Assembly (NCBI GenBank): GCA_040143965.1
Contig: JASJQH010006897.1
Span: forward strand, 1 to 47,463
Direction of reading: 5' to 3'
Length of the DNA: 47,463 bases
From: Basidiobolus ranarum
Taxonomy: Eukaryota
The notes below the pieces were generated by a model. That model searched no databases. It was not told where the DNA came from and was given only the letters and a program-made list of their open reading frames with translations. A program made the position numbers and the translations under genes. Shown piece after piece: positions 8,761-27,900 of this stretch; the stretch's first letter is position 1, and each line of letters begins with the position of its first letter.

Positions 8761-9357
8761 CTATAGTTCCGATAGGAATTTCTTGATTCCAGCTGGAAGT
8801 AGTTTATGCTCTATAGAATGTATTCTTTCTTCCAAGTCTTCAAGACTATCTTCTGGTAGAATAGGTATCTCTTGAGTAAGAATAGGAAGTCCTCTATCAA
8901 CTGCTGGGATAACTTTATGCACCATGGCGCCAGTATGCGTGATAGTTCCTTCTTTGAAAGCTTGATAAGCTCTTTCAATAGCATGAGCACCATCAAATTG
9001 ACCTGGTAAAGCTGGATGAAGATTAATCACATTCTCGGAGAAGTGTTGAAGAAAGTCGGCACTGAGAATATGCATCCAACCGGCAAGAACAATCAAGTCT
9101 GGTTTGTATTCCAAAATCTTCTTGGCCAAGTCAATGTCGTATTCAACACGAGTCTTTCCAGCTTCTTTATAAGGCTTTAGCGGAAACACAACAGTAGGAA
9201 TGCTAGCATTGGACGCTCTAGTCAAGCCGTAGGCGTTGGAGCGGTTTGATATAACCACAGAAATCTCAGCCTTTATCTCTCCGTTAGCAACATTGTCAAT
9301 GATGGCTTGGAGGTTGGAGCCATTACCAGATATCAAGATAACAATTTTGGGCACCAT
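8761..9357 (-). CDS. ADE8: Phosphoribosylglycinamide formyltransferase (monofunctional GAR transformylase)
   Basis: ISGNGSNLQA phosphate-binding loop, LAGWMHIL, INLHPALP, TGAMVHKV..VDRG and ERIHSIEH motifs. Confidence 0.95.
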   Translation of the reverse strand: MVPKIVILISGNGSNLQAIIDNVANGEIKAEISVVISNRSNAYGLTRASNASIPTVVFPLKPYKEAGKTRVEYDIDLAKKILEYKPDLIVLAGWMHILSADFLQHFSENVINLHPALPGQFDGAHAIERAYQAFKEGTITHTGAMVHKVIPAVDRGLPILTQEIPILPEDSLEDLEERIHSIEHKLLPAGIKKFLSEL

Positions 9358-9831
9358 TGGATAAGATAAAGATAGGCTTCAAATGCCAGAGGTTTTAATG
9401 AGCATACAAATGATTCATGTGCATGTGATTGGTGGTGTCTCCGAGTCACACCTGTTTTAGTCTTTCTACAGGGAGGTAGTTGATTGAAAATTTTGCTCAG
9501 ACTCGTTTGTGCTTATTTATTGATTGATCAGGCTGCGTGGCAGAATAAAGGGAACAGAGAAATTTATACAAACTAGGGAGTATATTGGCAACATTAAACG
9601 AATGTACCATGGAAATAAAGTGCAAAAAAGAAACGCCAGGTTTAGAAGAAAATAAGCCAAATAATAATCAGAGAAACTGGTACGCTTTGTTGAAAGCGAA
9701 GATGTGTGGAAAGGGCTAATTCATCAAACTGGCCTAATATCGCTCTCATACCCATGAGCTTTATTAAACCAGCCAAATATGATGAACAACTCTTATCCTA
9801 GAAAAAAGATATATGCTATCGTTAATAAATA

Positions 9832-10827
9832 TTAAGGTGGCCACAACATATTATTACGCAAGGAAGGAACAAAAATCCAGTCCTGGCGTAAAATCTTTAC
9901 GGACTCAAGAGCTTTGTAAAAAAGCGTCAAGGGCTTAACCGGGATGTCCTCATCTATGTTCTTACGGAATCCGGGGTATTCAGGTGAATGGTTCAAAAGA
10001 ATGGGGCTGAGACCAAAACTGAAGATCCAAATTAGTATCCACCATACCAGGGAAATATTGTAGCTGTTGAGGCATACAGGAAGATCCGTCGAACGAAAAG
10101 ATGGGCCGTAAAGATTCCTCTTGAATGTTGGTAGCCTCCGCTGCTGAGAATCAAAGCAAGGTTGTCTATTGACAACTCTCGAAAATGACTTGGTGAGCAC
10201 TGCTGACTCGCCAAAGCTACCAACAAGGAAATTTGACATCACGGGTTGTTGTGAAACAGGATTAGCATGAAACTGCGATTGGAACTGCGCTAACTGGGCA
10301 GTAAGAGCCTCCAGTTTCTTAGCAAGATTTAGTTTCTCATCTTCTACTCTTTGTAAACGCATTGACAAAGTATTGTTTTGCTCTTGAAGAACATTATTAG
10401 AATCTTCGAGTTCTGAGATGTAAAGACGTTTACGATCACGAGACTCTTGAGCAGCCGCTCTATTTCTAATGACTCTGTCCTTGGCACGTGCATCCTTATC
10501 AATGACTTCACTCTTGCGTTTTCGACCAGCTTTACTAGCTGTTCTAACCGCCGGCTCAGGGGAGGTTTGTTCAGAAGAGACTGATGAACTGCGAGCTTTG
10601 AAACTTCTAGGTGAAAGCGAGCCATCCCGTGAAACACCGTTCTCAGTCCCAAAATCTGTGACGTGAGCAGGTGGAGTCAATGGAAGAGTGTTTAATCTAG
10701 AGTCGGAGAAAAACGAAGATTCTTTCATGAAAGAGTAGGTTTGAGGAAACTCTGTCTTGCTAACCGTCGTCACATCTTCTGGCAAAAAAGTACCAAACAA
10801 GTTGGGCATCAAAGAATTTGCTGACAT
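9832..10827 (-). CDS. HAC1: Unfolded protein response bZIP factor HAC1/XBP1 (unspliced 331 aa, stop at 9832; spliced 262 aa, stop at 9980)
   Basis: Basic region DRVIRNRAAAQESRDRKR..SELE plus leucine zipper resembles HacA/XBP1; GESA motif at the Ire1 5' cleavage site. The start at ATG 10827 is inferred; the 72 codons upstream in the ORF track probably cover promoter/5'UTR (CCAAT- and TATA-like motifs). Confidence 0.88.
   Translation of the reverse strand: MSANSLMPNLFGTFLPEDVTTVSKTEFPQTYSFMKESSFFSDSRLNTLPLTPPAHVTDFGTENGVSRDGSLSPRSFKARSSSVSSEQTSPEPAVRTASKAGRKRKSEVIDKDARAKDRVIRNRAAAQESRDRKRLYISELEDSNNVLQEQNNTLSMRLQRVEDEKLNLAKKLEALTAQLAQFQSQFHANPVSQQPVMSNFLVGSFGESAVLTKSFSRVVNRQPCFDSQQRRLPTFKRNLYGPSFRSTDLPVCLNSYNISLVWWILIWIFSFGLSPILLNHSPEYPGFRKNIDEDIPVKPLTLFYKALESVKILRQDWIFVPSLRNNMLWPP
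10144..10202 (-). other. Ire1-cleaved non-spliceosomal intron, 59 nt
   Basis: 5' hairpin TTGGCGAGT[CAG|CAGT]GCTCACCAA and 3' hairpin TTCT[CAG|CAGC]GGAG, both with 7-nt CNGCNGN loops; length is 2 mod 3; no GT donor. Confidence 0.88.
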
Positions 10828-11286: not shown

Positions 11287-12355
11287 TTAGTGGGTTTTTT
11301 CCGTCTTGGTTAAGGATATGAGACCATCGCGAATGACGGTGTATCCATTTCCCACAAATGCTGGGATTTTAGGGTTAGCGGTAGGTGGGAGCATCCACTT
11401 ATCCATGCGGTTACGAAGTTCTCCGAAAACATTACGAATATGTGGTGATGTTGCATAACGAAGTCTGAGGAAGTTTCCGTAAAAGAGGACAGCCAAGGGA
11501 GATATATTGAACCTAAATTGAAAGTTAGCATTGATTTTATACATACAGGTGACTAAGGATGATTACGTTAGAGCCTCAGTAAGAATAATTGACATTACGC
11601 CAAGAACCTCAATGTAAGATATAATGCCCATGCATTTCTCATAATAGACATCCTTGAATCGTTTAATGGTATCAGATGCTTGTTGGAAAATGCTTCGAGG
11701 CTGACCAGGGACTGGTGGCTGGGCGACAGATGGGACGAACGTAGGTAAAATTGCAGTACGAATAAAATCCACCACATGGAAAGAGGAGTATACACCGAAT
11801 GGAATCAGGGTAACTGAGATAGATGTTATAAGTTTTGTTTCTTTGGAATAGACAACTGCCATTTAACTTACTGAAGACTGGGGAGGAAAGCAACCAGATT
11901 ATAGCCATAATGAAGTACTGAGCGTTTTCGTCGCCAATAATTTTTTGAACAAGGGAGCCGTTAATCTGAGGGATCTATATTGTTCAGGGAATGTCGGTAA
12001 TCGTGTATAAACCATGTTTTATAAAACGAAATAAAATCTTACGCCATGCGTTTTCCACAATGTTATTCCATAGCTAAGTAGTGCGCCCAAGTAGGCAATG
12101 TAATACCACGGTTTCGAGTTGTCGTAGCTGAATGGTCTTTTCAAGAGGTAGACCAAACTGGATATTGTGACAATAACATGGCCAAACCACCATGCGAATC
12201 GAGCATTCTGTCAAGTAAATTATATGTTAGAAATCTGGTTTAATCGAATACCCAAAGTTCCTCTTTATTATTACCATCGTTAGAAGCTTGATTCTTTCGA
12301 CAAGAGGCTTTGTCAGAGCAGTACTAGGCTTCGCCTGGGTTGTGTTGGTAGACAT
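11287..12355 (-). CDS. POM33: ER / nuclear pore membrane protein Pom33/Per33/TMEM33, 5 exons
   Basis: Spliced: FAWWFGH..AYLGALLSYGI..DENAQYFIMAIIWL..TLIPFGVYSSFHV..YGNFLRLRY (TMEM33/Pom33 family motifs); four GT-AG introns. Confidence 0.9.
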
Positions 12356-24942: not shown

Positions 24943-27900
24943 ATGAATGTTGTACGACTAGGGCATCTTAAAGGCGTATCAAGAAGTTCAGTGCATTCAA
25001 TATGCGATTCTCACTTTGGCTTCAGGTTTCCGCCCCGCTACATTTACCTAAAAATTCGATTGAAAAGTGATACCACAAAGTCCAAAATCTCAGGTAATAT
25101 CCAAATTACTAGAGTACTATCTGATTTTTCTTTCTTTGCATATATGTCATTCGAAAGTTCATACTGATGGGTTCGAATTTTGAAGAGGTCCCTCGAAATG
25201 AGCTTGGTATTCAAATGCTGAATCCTCATCTGAAGCAACAAATTTTTCCAGAAGCGAAGTGTTCAGTCCCCGAGATAAAGGTTGCCATTGCCGTCGAACA
25301 TTTGAAACGTCAAAATATTTGGGGAAATGAGGCACCATCGGTTCCAAATTCAAGTTTCAATCTACCGCCTTTGATGGGAGCAAATATCGAAGAGCACTTT
25401 AAGTTGTTGGGGCAAGAGCAATCTGAACCATATCTAACTTATGCAAAATTCTGGGCCAAGTCTGCAAGTTTACCACCAAGACCAACTGATTGGAAATTTG
25501 TTTCCGGTTGGACCAAATACTGCCCAGATGGAAATGTGACACCTGTAGAGTACCCTCAGGATAGTTTGGTTATTTTTGATATCGAAACATTAGTATCTGA
25601 AAGCGATTACCCTTTGTTTGCTATAGCTGTGGGTTCATCAGGTTGGTACGCCTGGATATCTCCAAGACTAACCGGTGAGAGTGGGGATATTAATCATCTT
25701 ATTCCTATGGGAGATACTGCTAAAGTTATTGTTGGACATAATGTTGGTTTTGACCGGGCAAGAATCTTAGAAGAATATCACAGACAGGGTTCGAAAAATG
25801 TATACCTAGATACTATGTCTTTTCACATCGCAGTAGGAGGCTTATCCAGTCACCAAAGGCTCAATGCTAAAGGGATGGAGAAGAAAGATGAAGAAAATTT
25901 GAAGAACGAACAAACTGGCATGGGCTCTATTAATCGATTATCTGAAGTGGCAAAACTCTATTGTGGAATCGAACTTGATAAATCTCCGAGGGATCTCTTG
26001 ATTAACGGAAATATTGAAGAGATCCGAAATGAGATCTCCTCACTGATGAATTACTGCGCAAATGATACTGCAGCAACCCATGAGGTGTTTAAGAAGGTAT
26101 TTCCAAGATTCCTTCAAAAATGCCCACACCCAGTCTCATTCGCTGGGATAATTCACATGGGCAGCTCATTTTTAACAGTAAATAGAAGTTGGGATAGTTA
26201 CATTGAGAGATCCGAGAAGACTTACAATGATATGTCAACGAGCATCGAAAAGAAACTCAAAGACCTAGCTTCATCTGCCCTGAAGACTTTGGATGATAAT
26301 TCCTATTCAGACGACGACTGGCTGAAACATCTCGACTGGACTGTTGTACCATTAAAAATGACCAAGCCTAAGTATAAGAAAGATGGAACTTATGCCAAGA
26401 ATGGCGAGCCCCGTCCATATAGTCATCAGTTACTCCCTGGTTTTCCTGAATGGTACAAGTCTTGTTACGATCAGAAAACAAATGATCTACGTATTACTAC
26501 ACGTTCTCGTATTACCCCCTATTTGCTGAAGTTGCAGTGGCGGGGCTATCCTGTGTATTATTCGAAAGGAAATGGTTGGACGTTTCGTGTCCCAAAAGAT
26601 GTGGACATTGGCGGCAGTGTTAAACCATGTAGCTTCACAGAGGACACATCAGATCCTAACTACGAGGAATTTCCTGTTTGTGATGCAAATGGGAAATACT
26701 ACCGTATTCCTCACAAAGATGGTGAACAAGCCAAATGTGGTAACCCTTTAAGCAAAGGGTACATCAATGCCTTTGAAGGTAGAACTTTATCATCGGAGTA
26801 TCCGGCTGCAAGGGAAGCTTTAAATATGAATGCTATGTGTTCTTATTGGATCAGTACTCGAGATCGTATTCGTTCTCAATTTGTCGTTTGGAGCCAAGAG
26901 AAAGAGAAGGTTGGCAACTTGGGATTTGCAGAGCAAGAGCCGGCTAACGAAGTTGGAATAATTCTGCCACAGATCGCGACAATGGGAACAATCACTCGCA
27001 GGGCTGTAGAACCTACTTGGTTGACTGCAAGCAATGCTAAAAAGAACCGCATTGGATCCGAATTAAAATCAATGGTCAAAGCACCTCTCGGATATTTGAT
27101 AGTAGGTGCAGACGTAGATTCTGAAGAGCTCTGGATCTCTAGCCTAATAGGTGATGGCCAATTTGGACTTCACGGTGCTACAGCTTTCGGATGGATGACT
27201 CTCCAAGGAACGAAATCTCAAGGAACAGACCTTCATTCGAAAACTGCTTCTATAATGGGTATCAACCGTGATCAAGCAAAGATATTTAATTATGGCCGTA
27301 TTTATGGGGCTGGTTTGAGATTTGCAACACAGCTGTTGTTGCAATGTAATCCCGATATGGAGGAGAAAACCGCGATCGATCGCTCCACTGCCCTGTATAA
27401 TGCCACCAAAGGTGTCAAAGAGAAGAGTTTGGAGTATTTTGGAAATCCTTTCTGGCATGGAGGGAGCGAAAGCTATATGTTTAATTGCTTAGAAAAAATC
27501 GCCACATCTATGAGTCCTACTACACCAGCACTTAACTGTACCATTCCCGATACTTTACTCCCTAAGAACGTTGATAATCAGGTATTTAATCTGTCACCGA
27601 CAATTACATTAGCTTACTTTAACGAGTATTAGTTTATGAAATCAAGAATCAATTGGGTGGTTCAATCTTCTGGTGTAGACTATCTCCATTTACTCCTCGT
27701 CTCAATGAAGCATTTGATAGACAAATACGATATCGACGCACGTTTCATGATCTCGGTTCATGATGAAATTCGGTACTTGGTAAAGGAAGAAGATCAATAT
27801 AGAGCAGCGCTCGCCATGCAAATCAGTAATCTCTGGACTCGTTCTCTTTTCAGTTATAAAGTTGGGATACAAGATTTACCACAGGTAACTCTATCTTAAT

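Follow-up and report, generated by a model that had tools for sequence, protein, structure and literature searches.

The minus-strand gene at positions 10827-9835 of the window (the whole 47,463-nt stretch of Basidiobolus ranarum DNA that was analysed) appears from its sequence to encode a bZIP factor of Hac1/XBP1 type that regulates the unfolded protein response of Basidiobolus (Zoopagomycota), and its mRNA very probably contains a genuine Ire1-type intron of the Hac1/XBP1 kind, a putative element of 59 nt. The analysis shows the arrangement in the sequence, its rarity by statistical measures, the open spliced frame and, in the proteins, conservation of the segments encoded by the hairpins. 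Cleavage, ligation, dependence on stress and an activation function of the spliced product are what we infer from this arrangement. The Ire1-type interpretation had been put forward in a preliminary description of this DNA, and it is supported by the host bZIP gene, the position of the site past the zipper, the RNA architecture, the open spliced frame, the zipping of the exons and the conservation in relatives.

9835..10827, minus strand: coding sequence, before splicing, of the bZIP (Hac1/XBP1-like) gene; the start agrees with that annotated for B. meristosporus P0002, 71% identical
10312..10494, minus strand: bZIP domain (basic region and leucine zipper), residues 112-172; Pfam bZIP_1 and bZIP_2
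10144..10202, minus strand: predicted Ire1-type intron, 59 nt, between the two loop cuts

The unspliced gene has 331 codons and ends at a TAA stop (9834-9832). Its bZIP domain is evident from the matches to Pfam bZIP_1 (E 8.5e-09, score 35.8 bits, the cutoff being 27.6) and bZIP_2 (E 8.9e-08). The best of 25 database matches is the B. meristosporus protein P0002, in which 71% of the residues are identical across 99% of the length, and the nearest named relative beyond Basidiobolus is the 'bZIP transcription factor HacA' of Rhizophagus clarus. Because Pfam holds no Hac1-specific profile, orthology to Hac1 rests on the best matches and on the intron itself. Basidiobolus has several copies of the gene, 3 of them in B. 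meristosporus among the matches, and the paralogues show 32-43% identity. Further Pfam families recorded on some of the homologues, a DUF and coiled-coil noise, are of no help for orthology.

The candidate site follows shortly after the leucine zipper, where two 7-nt loops, CAGCAGT (10205-10199) and CAGCAGC (10146-10140), are found on the minus strand. Both fit CNG|CNGN, the class being defined by CxGxxG in two 7-nt loops with a flanking stem (PMC11077094, PMC4687415). The positions of the two loops and the excision of 59 nt (10202-10144), as first described, were reread and recomputed and are correct. A scan for pairs of CNGCNGN loops with at least 4 closing pairs, lying 15-900 nt apart at a distance not divisible by 3, was run over both strands of the window; 8 such loops were recorded, and the one qualifying pair is that of the intron. 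When the window was dinucleotide-shuffled (n = 200), any qualifying loop pair appeared in 3% of the shuffles, with a mean of 0.035. An alternative 3' site, CAGCGGA at 10143, was discarded, its closing stem being absent.

10190..10214, minus strand: 5' splice-site hairpin; stem 10214-10206 / 10198-10190, loop CAGCAGU, predicted cut after G10203
10136..10150, minus strand: 3' splice-site hairpin; stem 10150-10147 / 10139-10136, loop CAGCAGC, predicted cut after G10144
10216..10224, minus strand: exon-exon stem S1, 5' arm, GUUGGUAGC; perfect pairing with 10135-10127
10127..10135, minus strand: exon-exon stem S1, 3' arm, GCUACCAAC; extendable by GGAG 10139-10136 (ES1-like zipper)
10161..10176, minus strand: hairpin inside the intron, stem of 6 bp, loop AAUA; -6.7 kcal/mol, probably incidental

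Folding of the region had been named as a check in the preliminary description: the 106-nt region reaches -40.6 kcal/mol as compared to -25.4 ± 3.3 kcal/mol for its shuffles (z -4.64), and none of the 200 shuffles equals it. The S1 helix, formed by 10224-10216 with 10135-10127, has an ensemble pair probability of 1.0. The exon-exon pairing is real, and with 9 perfect pairs it is longer than had been claimed; the sequence GGAGGCTAC earlier named for it does pair, its end at 10131 lying one base past the claimed lower bound. The 5' stem (S2), TTGGCGAGT/GCTCACCAA, also stands as described, apart from one C.A mismatch: 8 of its 9 positions are paired, including one closing G.U. The 5' hairpin by itself has a free energy of -9.3 kcal/mol, and the pair probability is 0.77 for the second pair from the loop and 0.25 for the closing G.U. 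In the folding model, S2 appears stable enough for presentation of the 5' loop.

The 3' stem (S3), TTCT/GGAG, pairs as stated earlier and is marginal, as evident from its 4 pairs, of which 2 are G.U, a free energy of -1.6 kcal/mol alone and a closing-pair probability of 0.013. The 3' hairpin is occupied at ~1% in the unconstrained ensemble, where extension of the exon-exon stem prevails. This extension of S1 by GGAG (10139-10136) costs the 3' hairpin, and the assignment of GGAG to both the 3' stem and the exon-exon pairing, as originally proposed, combines mutually exclusive uses. When all three helices are enforced, the fold has -34.9 kcal/mol, which is 5.7 kcal/mol above the MFE of -40.6. 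The extra internal hairpin, GTTGTC-AATA-GACAAC, is indeed perfect, yet a comparable hairpin occurs in 272 of 5000 shuffled introns, and it is not significant; it is absent from the paralogues with an inferred 47-nt intron, and the peptide that it encodes is not kept in the Basidiobolus paralogues. 'Complete RNA architecture' was an overstatement, in view of the marginal 3' hairpin and the non-significant internal one.

With the intron removed, the exons are predicted to zip up: the exon-exon duplex has -28.7 kcal/mol as compared to -14.4 ± 3.2 kcal/mol for shuffles, and 0 of 300 shuffles is as good. In the predicted spliced fold the stem is extended, a 9-nt loop contains the junction and the last bases of the motif are paired, leaving the motif outside a 7-mer loop.

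A match to the Rfam HAC1/XBP1 model, which had been named as a check, was not obtained: RF04247, the Hac1/Xbp1 intron family of Metazoa in Rfam 15 (PMC11701678), has no match on either strand of 9700-10700 at E up to 10. Such a miss would be expected for a 59-nt intron compared to a metazoan model of short introns, and the present intron is not placed in RF04247. Four other Rfam matches in 9700-10700 (mir-234, a TrxA thermometer, a CRISPR repeat and a Kv1.4 IRES) are noise.

9983..10143, minus strand: 3' exon in the spliced frame; 54-residue C-terminus including the junction codon, stop TGA 9982-9980

The excised 59 nt are 2 mod 3, and the 5' cut falls in codon 209. The spliced protein has 262 aa, and its 54-residue tail contains 7 acidic, 1 basic and 8 aromatic residues. 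The 56-codon stop-free run of the spliced frame is its longest within the gene (the other runs have at most 21 codons), and of the comparable alternative-frame positions across the window, just 0.7% are open for at least 53 codons. With the 56-aa spliced-frame ORF as query, no spliced-form protein was found among longer database proteins, and an exhaustive search of 1.84 billion representatives returned one 955-aa match (five weak stretches), judged irrelevant. Comparison of the spliced tail to the spliced-type C-termini of Mucor and Helicostylum gave a BLASTP E of 0.17 and no alignment. A Leu-Asp...Phe...Trp pattern, seen by eye as common to spliced tails, received no statistical support.

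In the mechanism proposed, the mRNA would form a bifurcated stem-loop, in which the S1 helix bears two arms, each showing CAG|CAG(U/C) in a 7-nt loop. Upon ER stress, Ire1 would cut after G10203 and G10144 and free the 59-nt intron, while the exon ends would remain paired, zip further and be joined by tRNA ligase. The resulting +2 frame shift would swap the basic, hydrophobic C-terminus of 123 residues for the acidic, aromatic one of 54 residues, a presumed activation domain, and the 262-aa product would be the active factor.

9994..10050, minus strand: residues 260-278 of the unspliced frame, strongly hydrophobic, LVWWILIWIFSFGLSPILL; conserved in the paralogues
9835..9978, minus strand: unspliced-only tail, residues 284-331; ends Trp-Pro-Pro (TGG CCA CCT, 9843-9835), then TAA

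The C-terminus that splicing would replace has features of its own. Residues 260-278 show a mean Kyte-Doolittle hydropathy of 2.13 over 19 residues and end 53 residues from the C-terminus; the segment is located downstream of the intron, would be lost on splicing, and its DNA is dual-coded with the spliced-frame tail. As judged by protein alignment, the unspliced frame is conserved as a protein past the spliced-frame stop, where residues 284-331 are identical to P0002 at 34 of 48 positions (17 of the last 20); in the dual-coded part, conservation cannot be credited to either frame singly. BLASTP with the tail alone gave E values of 1e-13 to P0003 and 2e-09 to P0004, both alignments reaching the C-terminal end. 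The distance from the end of the hydrophobic segment to the stop is 53 residues in the window copy (P0001), 51 in P0003 and 46 in P0004; in P0002 the best-scoring hydropathy window is shifted, giving 62 residues. Trp-Pro-Pro-stop is present in 3 of the 5 Basidiobolus proteins with a complete C-terminus, namely P0001, P0002 and P0003 (the partial P0024 being excluded), while P0004 ends in Pro-Thr and P0005 lacks the tail and has a different C-terminus.

A database search with the tail only returned P0002 as the sole match; the tail showed no similarity to Endogone (E 15), and solved structures gave 0 matches at E up to 10. By architecture only, a hydrophobic segment stands 58 residues before ...Arg-Pro-Pro-stop in Endogone, the Rhizophagus HacA ends in ...Tyr-Pro-Pro-stop, and long hydrophobic unspliced tails are found in Mortierellaceae and two chytrids.

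These features suggest how the unspliced mRNA might reach the membrane on which Ire1 acts. With about even chances, the unspliced mRNA is translated and the conserved hydrophobic segment guides ribosome, nascent chain and mRNA as one complex to the ER membrane, as happens with XBP1u and plant bZIP60u. That Basidiobolus has adopted for its Hac1 mRNA the animal and plant solution (a hydrophobic segment, with slow Trp-Pro-Pro-stop termination keeping the complex at the membrane until the Ire1 cut) and not the yeast one is suggested more tentatively, at somewhat below even chances, and it is a little more doubtful that slow termination at the conserved Pro-Pro-stop, ~50 residues downstream, assists the delivery. 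A yeast-type translational block by intron-5'UTR pairing was considered and rejected, upstream pairing not being above that of shuffles: against the 303 nt upstream of the ATG, taken as a stand-in for the 5'UTR, the best duplex of the intron has -24.0 kcal/mol, weaker than that of shuffled introns (-29.1 ± 3.7), and 92% of 200 shuffled introns pair with these 303 nt at least as well.

The same tail may be read otherwise with a real intron, as a membrane anchor that excludes the factor from the nucleus or as a negative regulator of the spliced form. The hydropathy of 2.13 over 19 residues is nearer to that of a transmembrane helix than to the 'mildly hydrophobic' HR2 of XBP1u (PMC6624018), and plant bZIP60u is membrane-associated via its transmembrane domain (PMC11077094, PMC4891664). 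Arabidopsis bZIP60u, reportedly held out of the nucleus, provides a precedent. A pure anchor, however, leaves the ~50-residue spacing to the conserved Trp-Pro-Pro-stop unexplained. The roles of anchor and delivery are moreover compatible, as the plant arrangement also serves stalling-assisted splicing (PMC11077094). On balance, an anchor or negative regulator is unlikely, although it is the most probable of the alternatives.

Conservation of the intron borders was judged at the protein level in four Basidiobolus relatives (P0002, P0003, P0004 and P0005). The 5' hairpin encodes FGESAVLTK, and residues 204-212 are 8/9 identical in all 4 paralogues; the SQQRR encoded by the 3' hairpin is kept or conservatively changed, P0004 having SLQRK in its place, which still permits CUG|CAG. 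The residues encoded by the spacer between them are conserved only at 4/12, 1/12, 1/12 and 1/12 positions, and the spacer is 4 codons shorter in three paralogues. The inferred intron lengths are 59 nt in P0002 and 47 nt in P0003, P0004 and P0005, all of them 2 mod 3 because both motifs lie in one frame. The loops and stems may be conserved in the relatives, as far as the proteins indicate. In metagenome contigs searched for related loci, 595 pattern matches gave 0 confirmed ones, and no match came from a metagenome scan with a degenerate version of the peptide encoded by the 5' hairpin.

This conservation may also be viewed as protein-driven or coincidental, FGESAVLTK and SQQRR being needed by the protein, the mRNA never being cut by Ire1 and the 331-aa protein being the sole product. 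Ser(UCN)-Ala-[Val/Ala/Gly/Asp/Glu] always encodes CNGCNGN, so that selection on the protein would suffice to maintain the 5' motif; moreover, conservation of the unspliced frame clearly extends to the last residues, and the intron has a weak 3' hairpin and no Rfam match. Such a view fails, however, to explain jointly the two motifs in 7-nt loops, the 9-bp exon-exon helix (z -4.64) and the 2 mod 3 spacing. Nor does it account for an exceptionally open alternative frame (0.7%) precisely there, for a poorly conserved spacer of variable length between two well-conserved short peptides, or for a Mucor gene model with the corresponding SA|AE junction, and it is considered highly improbable. Least probable of all is that the Ire1 substrate architecture is real but belongs to a paralogue that has become redundant or been retired, with low expression or only a minor part in the unfolded protein response. 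In its favour, there are multiple Basidiobolus paralogues at 32-43% identity, and P0005, in which the C-terminal tail and some of the basic region are gone, demonstrates that copies can decay. P0001 and P0002, in contrast, have the basic region and zipper intact (77 of 88 residues identical) and retain both hairpin peptides, the tail and the hydrophobic segment, with the spliced frame open and no sign of decay.

The putative Ire1-type intron closely resembles that of metazoan XBP1 in its organization. Known for XBP1 and predicted for Basidiobolus are an S1 helix with two short exon-intron arms, 7-mer loops cut after the third base, an intron of 2 mod 3, and a zipping of the cleaved exons that takes the restored motif out of its 7-mer loop (PMC4687415). 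The 3' loop CAGCAGC departs from the metazoan C(C/U)G|CAGC consensus at position 2 only. The Basidiobolus intron differs in its length (59 nt as compared to 26), in having A rather than C/U at loop position 2, in a 5' loop that ends in U and in leaving the Rfam model unmatched; further, the post-cleavage loops of XBP1 are 5- or 6-mers (PMC4687415), as against the predicted 9-nt loop. The hydrophobic region of XBP1u lies 52 residues before the end of the ORF (PMC6624018), as compared to 53 in Basidiobolus. Unlike XBP1u, however, the Basidiobolus tail resembles no solved chain and ends in Pro-Pro-stop, not in an XBP1u-type arrest peptide.

Among fungi, HXL1 of Cryptococcus neoformans has an intron of comparable size (56 nt as compared to 59), with both introns being 2 mod 3 and having CAG and stem-loops at their borders (PMC3154848). 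Complementarity of the intron to the 5'UTR is not reported for HXL1 (PMC3154848), and none was found in Basidiobolus. The Ire1-dependent intron of HXL1 has been proven experimentally, whereas that of Basidiobolus is predicted from sequence; HXL1 is very divergent from Hac1/XBP1, whereas the Basidiobolus protein matches HacA-named and Mucoromycota relatives directly; and a counterpart of the hydrophobic segment and Pro-Pro-stop tail of Basidiobolus is not known to be reported for HXL1.

HAC1 of Saccharomyces cerevisiae is more distant in its mode of action, having a 252-nt intron that pairs with the 5'UTR and blocks translation, and a bipartite 3'UTR element that delivers the mRNA (PMC11077094, PMC6222058). 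Basidiobolus, in contrast, has a short intron, no unusual pairing with the 5'UTR and an unspliced frame conserved as protein.

A closer likeness in the unspliced tail is seen in plant bZIP60u and SmbZIP50u of Selaginella moellendorffii, where a hydrophobic region is lost on splicing and the ORF ends ~50 residues further on (PMC11077094). The Selaginella ORF closes with two Pro codons, and this Pro-Pro-stop leads to stalling at the termination step, which contributes to cytoplasmic splicing (PMC11077094). The Trp-Pro-Pro-stop of Basidiobolus, 53 residues past the hydrophobic segment, resembles this Pro-Pro-stop by architecture. The plant intron differs in being 23 nt long (PMC11077094), and the tails are likened with no claim of sequence homology.

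This likeness bears on a contrast drawn in the literature, in which fungi are represented by yeast, with an untranslated mRNA and a targeting element in the 3'UTR, while animals and plants have a translated unspliced protein with a hydrophobic region and ribosome stalling (PMC11077094, PMC4891664). Co-translational ER targeting in the style of XBP1u/bZIP60u has no description in a fungus among the literature matches listed, and the literature on the unfolded protein response of Basidiobolus gave nothing relevant. A fungus with a hydrophobic segment, a ~50-residue spacer and Pro-Pro-stop makes the origin of both mechanisms directly testable. If the reading holds, targeting by the nascent chain would go back to a common ancestor of fungi and animals, perhaps of plants as well, and Mucorales and Dikarya would have lost it, with short unspliced products and RNA-based mechanisms in its place.

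The intron itself would be a Zoopagomycota example of a well-known class, and its length falls inside the 19 to 848 nt documented for Ire1 introns of fungi (PMC6222058). The earlier expectation that gene predictors miss it is borne out, as the annotated proteins of both B. meristosporus and B. ranarum read straight through; public Basidiobolus models give the unspliced protein only, which is an annotation problem.

The bZIP domains closest to that of Basidiobolus belong to Mucorales, which are likewise early-diverging fungi. In Rhizopus arrhizus, an unannotated non-canonical intron has been found by RNA-seq in a Hac1 candidate (bioRxiv 10.1101/2023.11.16.567474). The Mucor 5' tripeptide Ser-Ala-Arg cannot encode G at loop position 6, and the unspliced Mucor product has 184 aa and stops 11 residues past the junction Ala with no hydrophobic tail, whereas the Basidiobolus protein continues for 122 residues. 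The Mucor model P0016 reads ...DSAAEVA, with the same SA|AE junction as the predicted ...ESA|AEA... of Basidiobolus, while P0020 ends shortly after ...DSA; the three Mucor models (P0016, P0019 and P0020) give three different C-termini for apparently one gene, which adds to the annotation problem.

The gene under study, with its RNA elements and neighbours, occupies the following positions.

Features of the locus (coordinates, strand, description)
10827-9835, minus: bZIP ORF, uninterrupted, 331 codons, stop TAA at 9834-9832
residues 112-172 of the ORF, minus: bZIP domain (Pfam bZIP_1, E 8.5e-09)
10224-10216 with 10135-10127, minus: exon-exon stem S1, 9 perfect pairs
10205-10199, minus: 5' loop CAGCAGU, closed by a stem of 9 positions, one of them a C.A mismatch
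10202-10144, minus: predicted intron, 59 nt, cut after base 3 of each loop
10176-10161, minus: perfect 6-bp hairpin inside the intron
10146-10140, minus: 3' loop CAGCAGC, closed by UUCU/GGAG
residues 260-278, unspliced frame (9835-10143 tail), minus: hydrophobic segment, mean hydropathy 2.13
11290-11862, minus: TMEM33/Pom33 gene, upstream neighbour of the bZIP gene
8764-9357, minus: GART-type formyltransferase gene (Pfam Formyl_trans_N, E 2.6e-50), adjoining the bZIP gene downstream on the same strand

A search of a 5.8-billion-protein collection (E up to 0.001) returned 25 proteins, the top match being a Basidiobolus meristosporus protein (P0002) with 71% identity over 99% of the length. Other B. 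meristosporus and B. ranarum paralogues form a second tier (identity 35-40% by BLASTP, 32-43% by multiple alignment), and a third holds bZIP proteins of Mortierellaceae, Endogone, Mucorales and chytrids, together with the Rhizophagus clarus 'bZIP transcription factor HacA'. The matches place the window in a Basidiobolus species (Zoopagomycota). Because its matches are Basidiobolus paralogues, early-diverging fungal bZIP proteins and R. clarus HacA, the window gene is assigned by sequence similarity to the Hac1/XBP1-type bZIP factors. The predicted element within it is very probably a genuine Ire1-type intron of a Basidiobolus Hac1/XBP1 orthologue, an element of known kind, and it is missing from public gene models.

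The loops, their stems and the internal hairpin were all located where the preliminary description had placed them, with 59 nt between the cuts. A scan of the whole window, plus and minus strands alike, gave 8 CNGCNGN loops with a closing stem of 4 or more consecutive pairs; the two of the bZIP gene are the sole pair spaced 15-900 nt apart at a distance not divisible by three. When the window was shuffled 200 times with its dinucleotides preserved, such pairs averaged 0.035 per shuffle and turned up in 3% of the shuffles. Of the 8 loops, the one with the strongest stem lies at about 27322-27344 (plus strand), where a perfect 8-bp inverted repeat encloses the heptamer (ttgcaaca-CAGCTGT-tgttgcaa); it lacks a partner site.

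Folding of the 106-nt region gave −40.6 kcal/mol as compared to −25.4 ± 3.3 for shuffled sequences (z −4.64, 0/200 as good). The exon-exon pairing is also present, its extent having been understated; S1 has a pair probability of 1.0 in the predicted ensemble. The 5' arm is reasonably stable on its own in the predicted fold (−9.3 kcal/mol), and the 3' arm is marginal, with four pairs (two of them G.U), −1.6 kcal/mol on its own and a closing-pair probability of 0.013. The GGAG of the 3' arm can also pair so as to lengthen S1; the two uses, which had been assumed together, are mutually exclusive, and a fold forced to contain all three helices reaches −34.9 kcal/mol, which is 5.7 kcal/mol less favourable than the minimum. 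When the intron is removed in silico, the exons form an extended stem with a duplex energy of −28.7 kcal/mol (shuffled −14.4 ± 3.2, 0/300 as good), and the restored motif lies in a predicted 9-nt loop with its final bases paired.

The XBP1 RNA, as outlined in an excerpt of PMC4687415, is a 'bifurcated stem-loop' built from an exon-exon stem (S1) and a pair of short arms between exon and intron (S2 and S3), with 7-mer loops C(C/U)G|CAGC; once these are cut, a longer exon-exon stem, ES1, expels the intron and the restored motif leaves the 7-mer loop. Similarly, the exons of the window gene are predicted to zip up after intron removal, and the motif ends outside a 7-mer loop. Since this predicted zipper behaves as described for XBP1, the competition for GGAG looks like part of an XBP1-style mechanism. 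The internal hairpin has no evidential value, because 272/5000 shuffled introns also form a perfect hairpin of 6 bp and paralogues do not preserve the peptide encoded by the internal one. The metazoan Hac1/Xbp1 family of Rfam 15, RF04247 (PMC11701678), was unmatched even at E 10, and the intron is therefore not assigned to it. Excerpted sources give HAC1 introns in fungi as 19 to 848 nt (PMC6222058), Cryptococcus HXL1 as having an intron of 56 nt bordered on each side by CAG (PMC3154848), and a Rhizopus arrhizus Hac1 candidate as having an unannotated non-canonical intron in RNA-seq (bioRxiv 10.1101/2023.11.16.567474). A literature search on Basidiobolus and the unfolded protein response found nothing relevant, and an earlier survey may list other early-diverging fungi.

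Splicing in silico yields a product of 262 aa, comprising residues 1-208 and a 54-residue tail ending at TGA 9982-9980. Of the tail residues, 7 are acidic, 1 is basic and 8 are aromatic; the unspliced continuation from the junction codon has 8 acidic and 15 basic among 123 residues. Along the gene the spliced frame has stop-free runs of 0-21 codons, except for a 56-codon run starting at the 3' splice site; at least 53 open codons follow only 0.7% of corresponding alternative-frame positions in all window ORFs of at least 200 codons. The spliced tail had no detectable relatives among longer proteins, one irrelevant match among 1.84 billion representatives, and E 0.17 or no alignment with Mucor and Helicostylum C-termini; these results weigh little, since gene-model databases are unlikely to contain spliced forms.

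Conservation was followed in a multiple alignment of 6 of the 25 matches (the window protein, P0002-P0005 and the partial P0024), identities being counted against the four full-length relatives.

Identity to the window protein (P0002; P0003; P0004; P0005)
Residues 204-212, over 5' hairpin: 8/9; 8/9; 8/9; 8/9
Residues 225-230, over 3' hairpin: 5/6; 4/6; 3/6; 4/6
12 spacer residues between hairpins: 4/12; 1/12; 1/12; 1/12

Conserved hairpin peptides with a free spacer would be the pattern expected of two constrained hairpins, as far as a protein-level proxy can tell, the amino acids fixing only some stem pairs. P0003, P0004 and P0005 have a spacer with four codons fewer. Every copy reads both motifs in one frame, the phase being 1 at the 5' cut and 0 at the 3' cut; the introns would therefore measure 59 nt in P0002 and 47 nt in the remaining three, each length being 2 mod 3. 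The 3' site of P0004 reads Ser-Leu-Gln-Arg-Lys, which still permits CUG|CAG. P0005, from B. meristosporus, lacks five basic-region residues and the C-terminal Trp-Pro-Pro tail but retains the two hairpin-coding peptides, and may represent a copy in decay or one that has specialised.

For relatives outside the genus, 17 of the 25 matches were examined. Mortierellaceae retain ...Gln-Ser-Ala-Val-Leu-Ala... and ...Ser-Arg-Gln-Gln-Lys..., and Endogone retains ...Glu-Ser-Ala-Ala-Leu-Ala... and ...Ser-Gln-Gln-Arg-Lys.... A 184-aa model of Mucor lusitanicus ends 11 residues past ...Asp-Ser-Ala, and a 252-aa model reads ...Asp-Ser-Ala-Ala-Glu-Val... as compared to ...Glu-Ser-Ala-Ala-Glu-Ala... at the predicted window junction. 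The Mucor models P0016, P0019 and P0020 share the ...Asp-Ser-Ala point and have three C-termini (184-aa unspliced-type, 252-aa spliced-type and 258-aa hybrid), which looks like annotation confusion from an Ire1-type intron. At the Mucor 5' site the tripeptide is Ser-Ala-Arg, which is unable to encode G at loop position 6.

In the window, as in P0002-P0004, no stop interrupts the unspliced frame over 123 codons. Its tail alone matches P0003 (E 1e-13) and P0004 (E 2e-09), the alignments reaching the last residues; past the stop of the spliced frame, in the 48 residues coded in a single frame, identity to P0002 is 34/48, and within the final 20 it is 17/20. This conservation in paralogues, including the part free of dual coding, indicates selection on the unspliced protein. 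A yeast-type translational block is unlikely, as the intron shows no unusual complementarity to the 303 nt preceding the ATG.

The residues between the end of the hydrophobic segment and the stop number 53 (window protein), 51 (P0003) and 46 (P0004). Among the 5 Basidiobolus proteins whose C-terminus is complete, 3 end in Trp-Pro-Pro-stop, P0004 has Pro-Thr at its end, and the tail is missing from P0005. Human XBP1u has its hydrophobic region, HR2, 52 residues ahead of the pause site (PMC6624018). Plant bZIP60u orthologues, in an excerpt of PMC11077094, stall about 50 residues past a hydrophobic region, and in Selaginella Pro-Pro-stop causes stalling, which contributes to splicing. The Basidiobolus hydrophobic segment, spacer of ~50 residues and Trp-Pro-Pro-stop resemble these modules as so described. 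By architecture only, Endogone has a hydrophobic segment 58 residues ahead of ...Pro-Pro-stop, the C-terminus of Rhizophagus HacA is ...Pro-Pro-stop, hydrophobic segments occur in the long unspliced tails of Mortierellaceae and two chytrids, and Mucorales lack such a segment. The unspliced tail shows no similarity to Endogone (E 15) or to solved chains, and the resemblance is thus architectural, not sequence-based. Between the two chytrid homologues (within the further matches P0007, P0013, P0009-P0012, P0017 and P0021) the hydrophobic stretch is near-identical.

Conservation and geometry make it conceivable, at slightly under an even chance, that this module brings the mRNA to Ire1 by membrane targeting; a role for termination stalling in that delivery is more doubtful. 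If true, delivery of a fungal Hac1 mRNA by an XBP1u/bZIP60u-like module would be a more novel possibility than the intron itself. Literature searches on a fungal hydrophobic-segment/stalling module, and on such an intron in Mucoromycota, gave no description of the fungal module among the matches listed.

The upstream TMEM33/Pom33 gene consists of two neighbouring same-frame ORFs with one stop between them (11565-11563), covering successive parts of the profile (positions 100-168, then 175-235). The stop likely sits in a short spliceosomal intron, a broken gene being a possible alternative reading.
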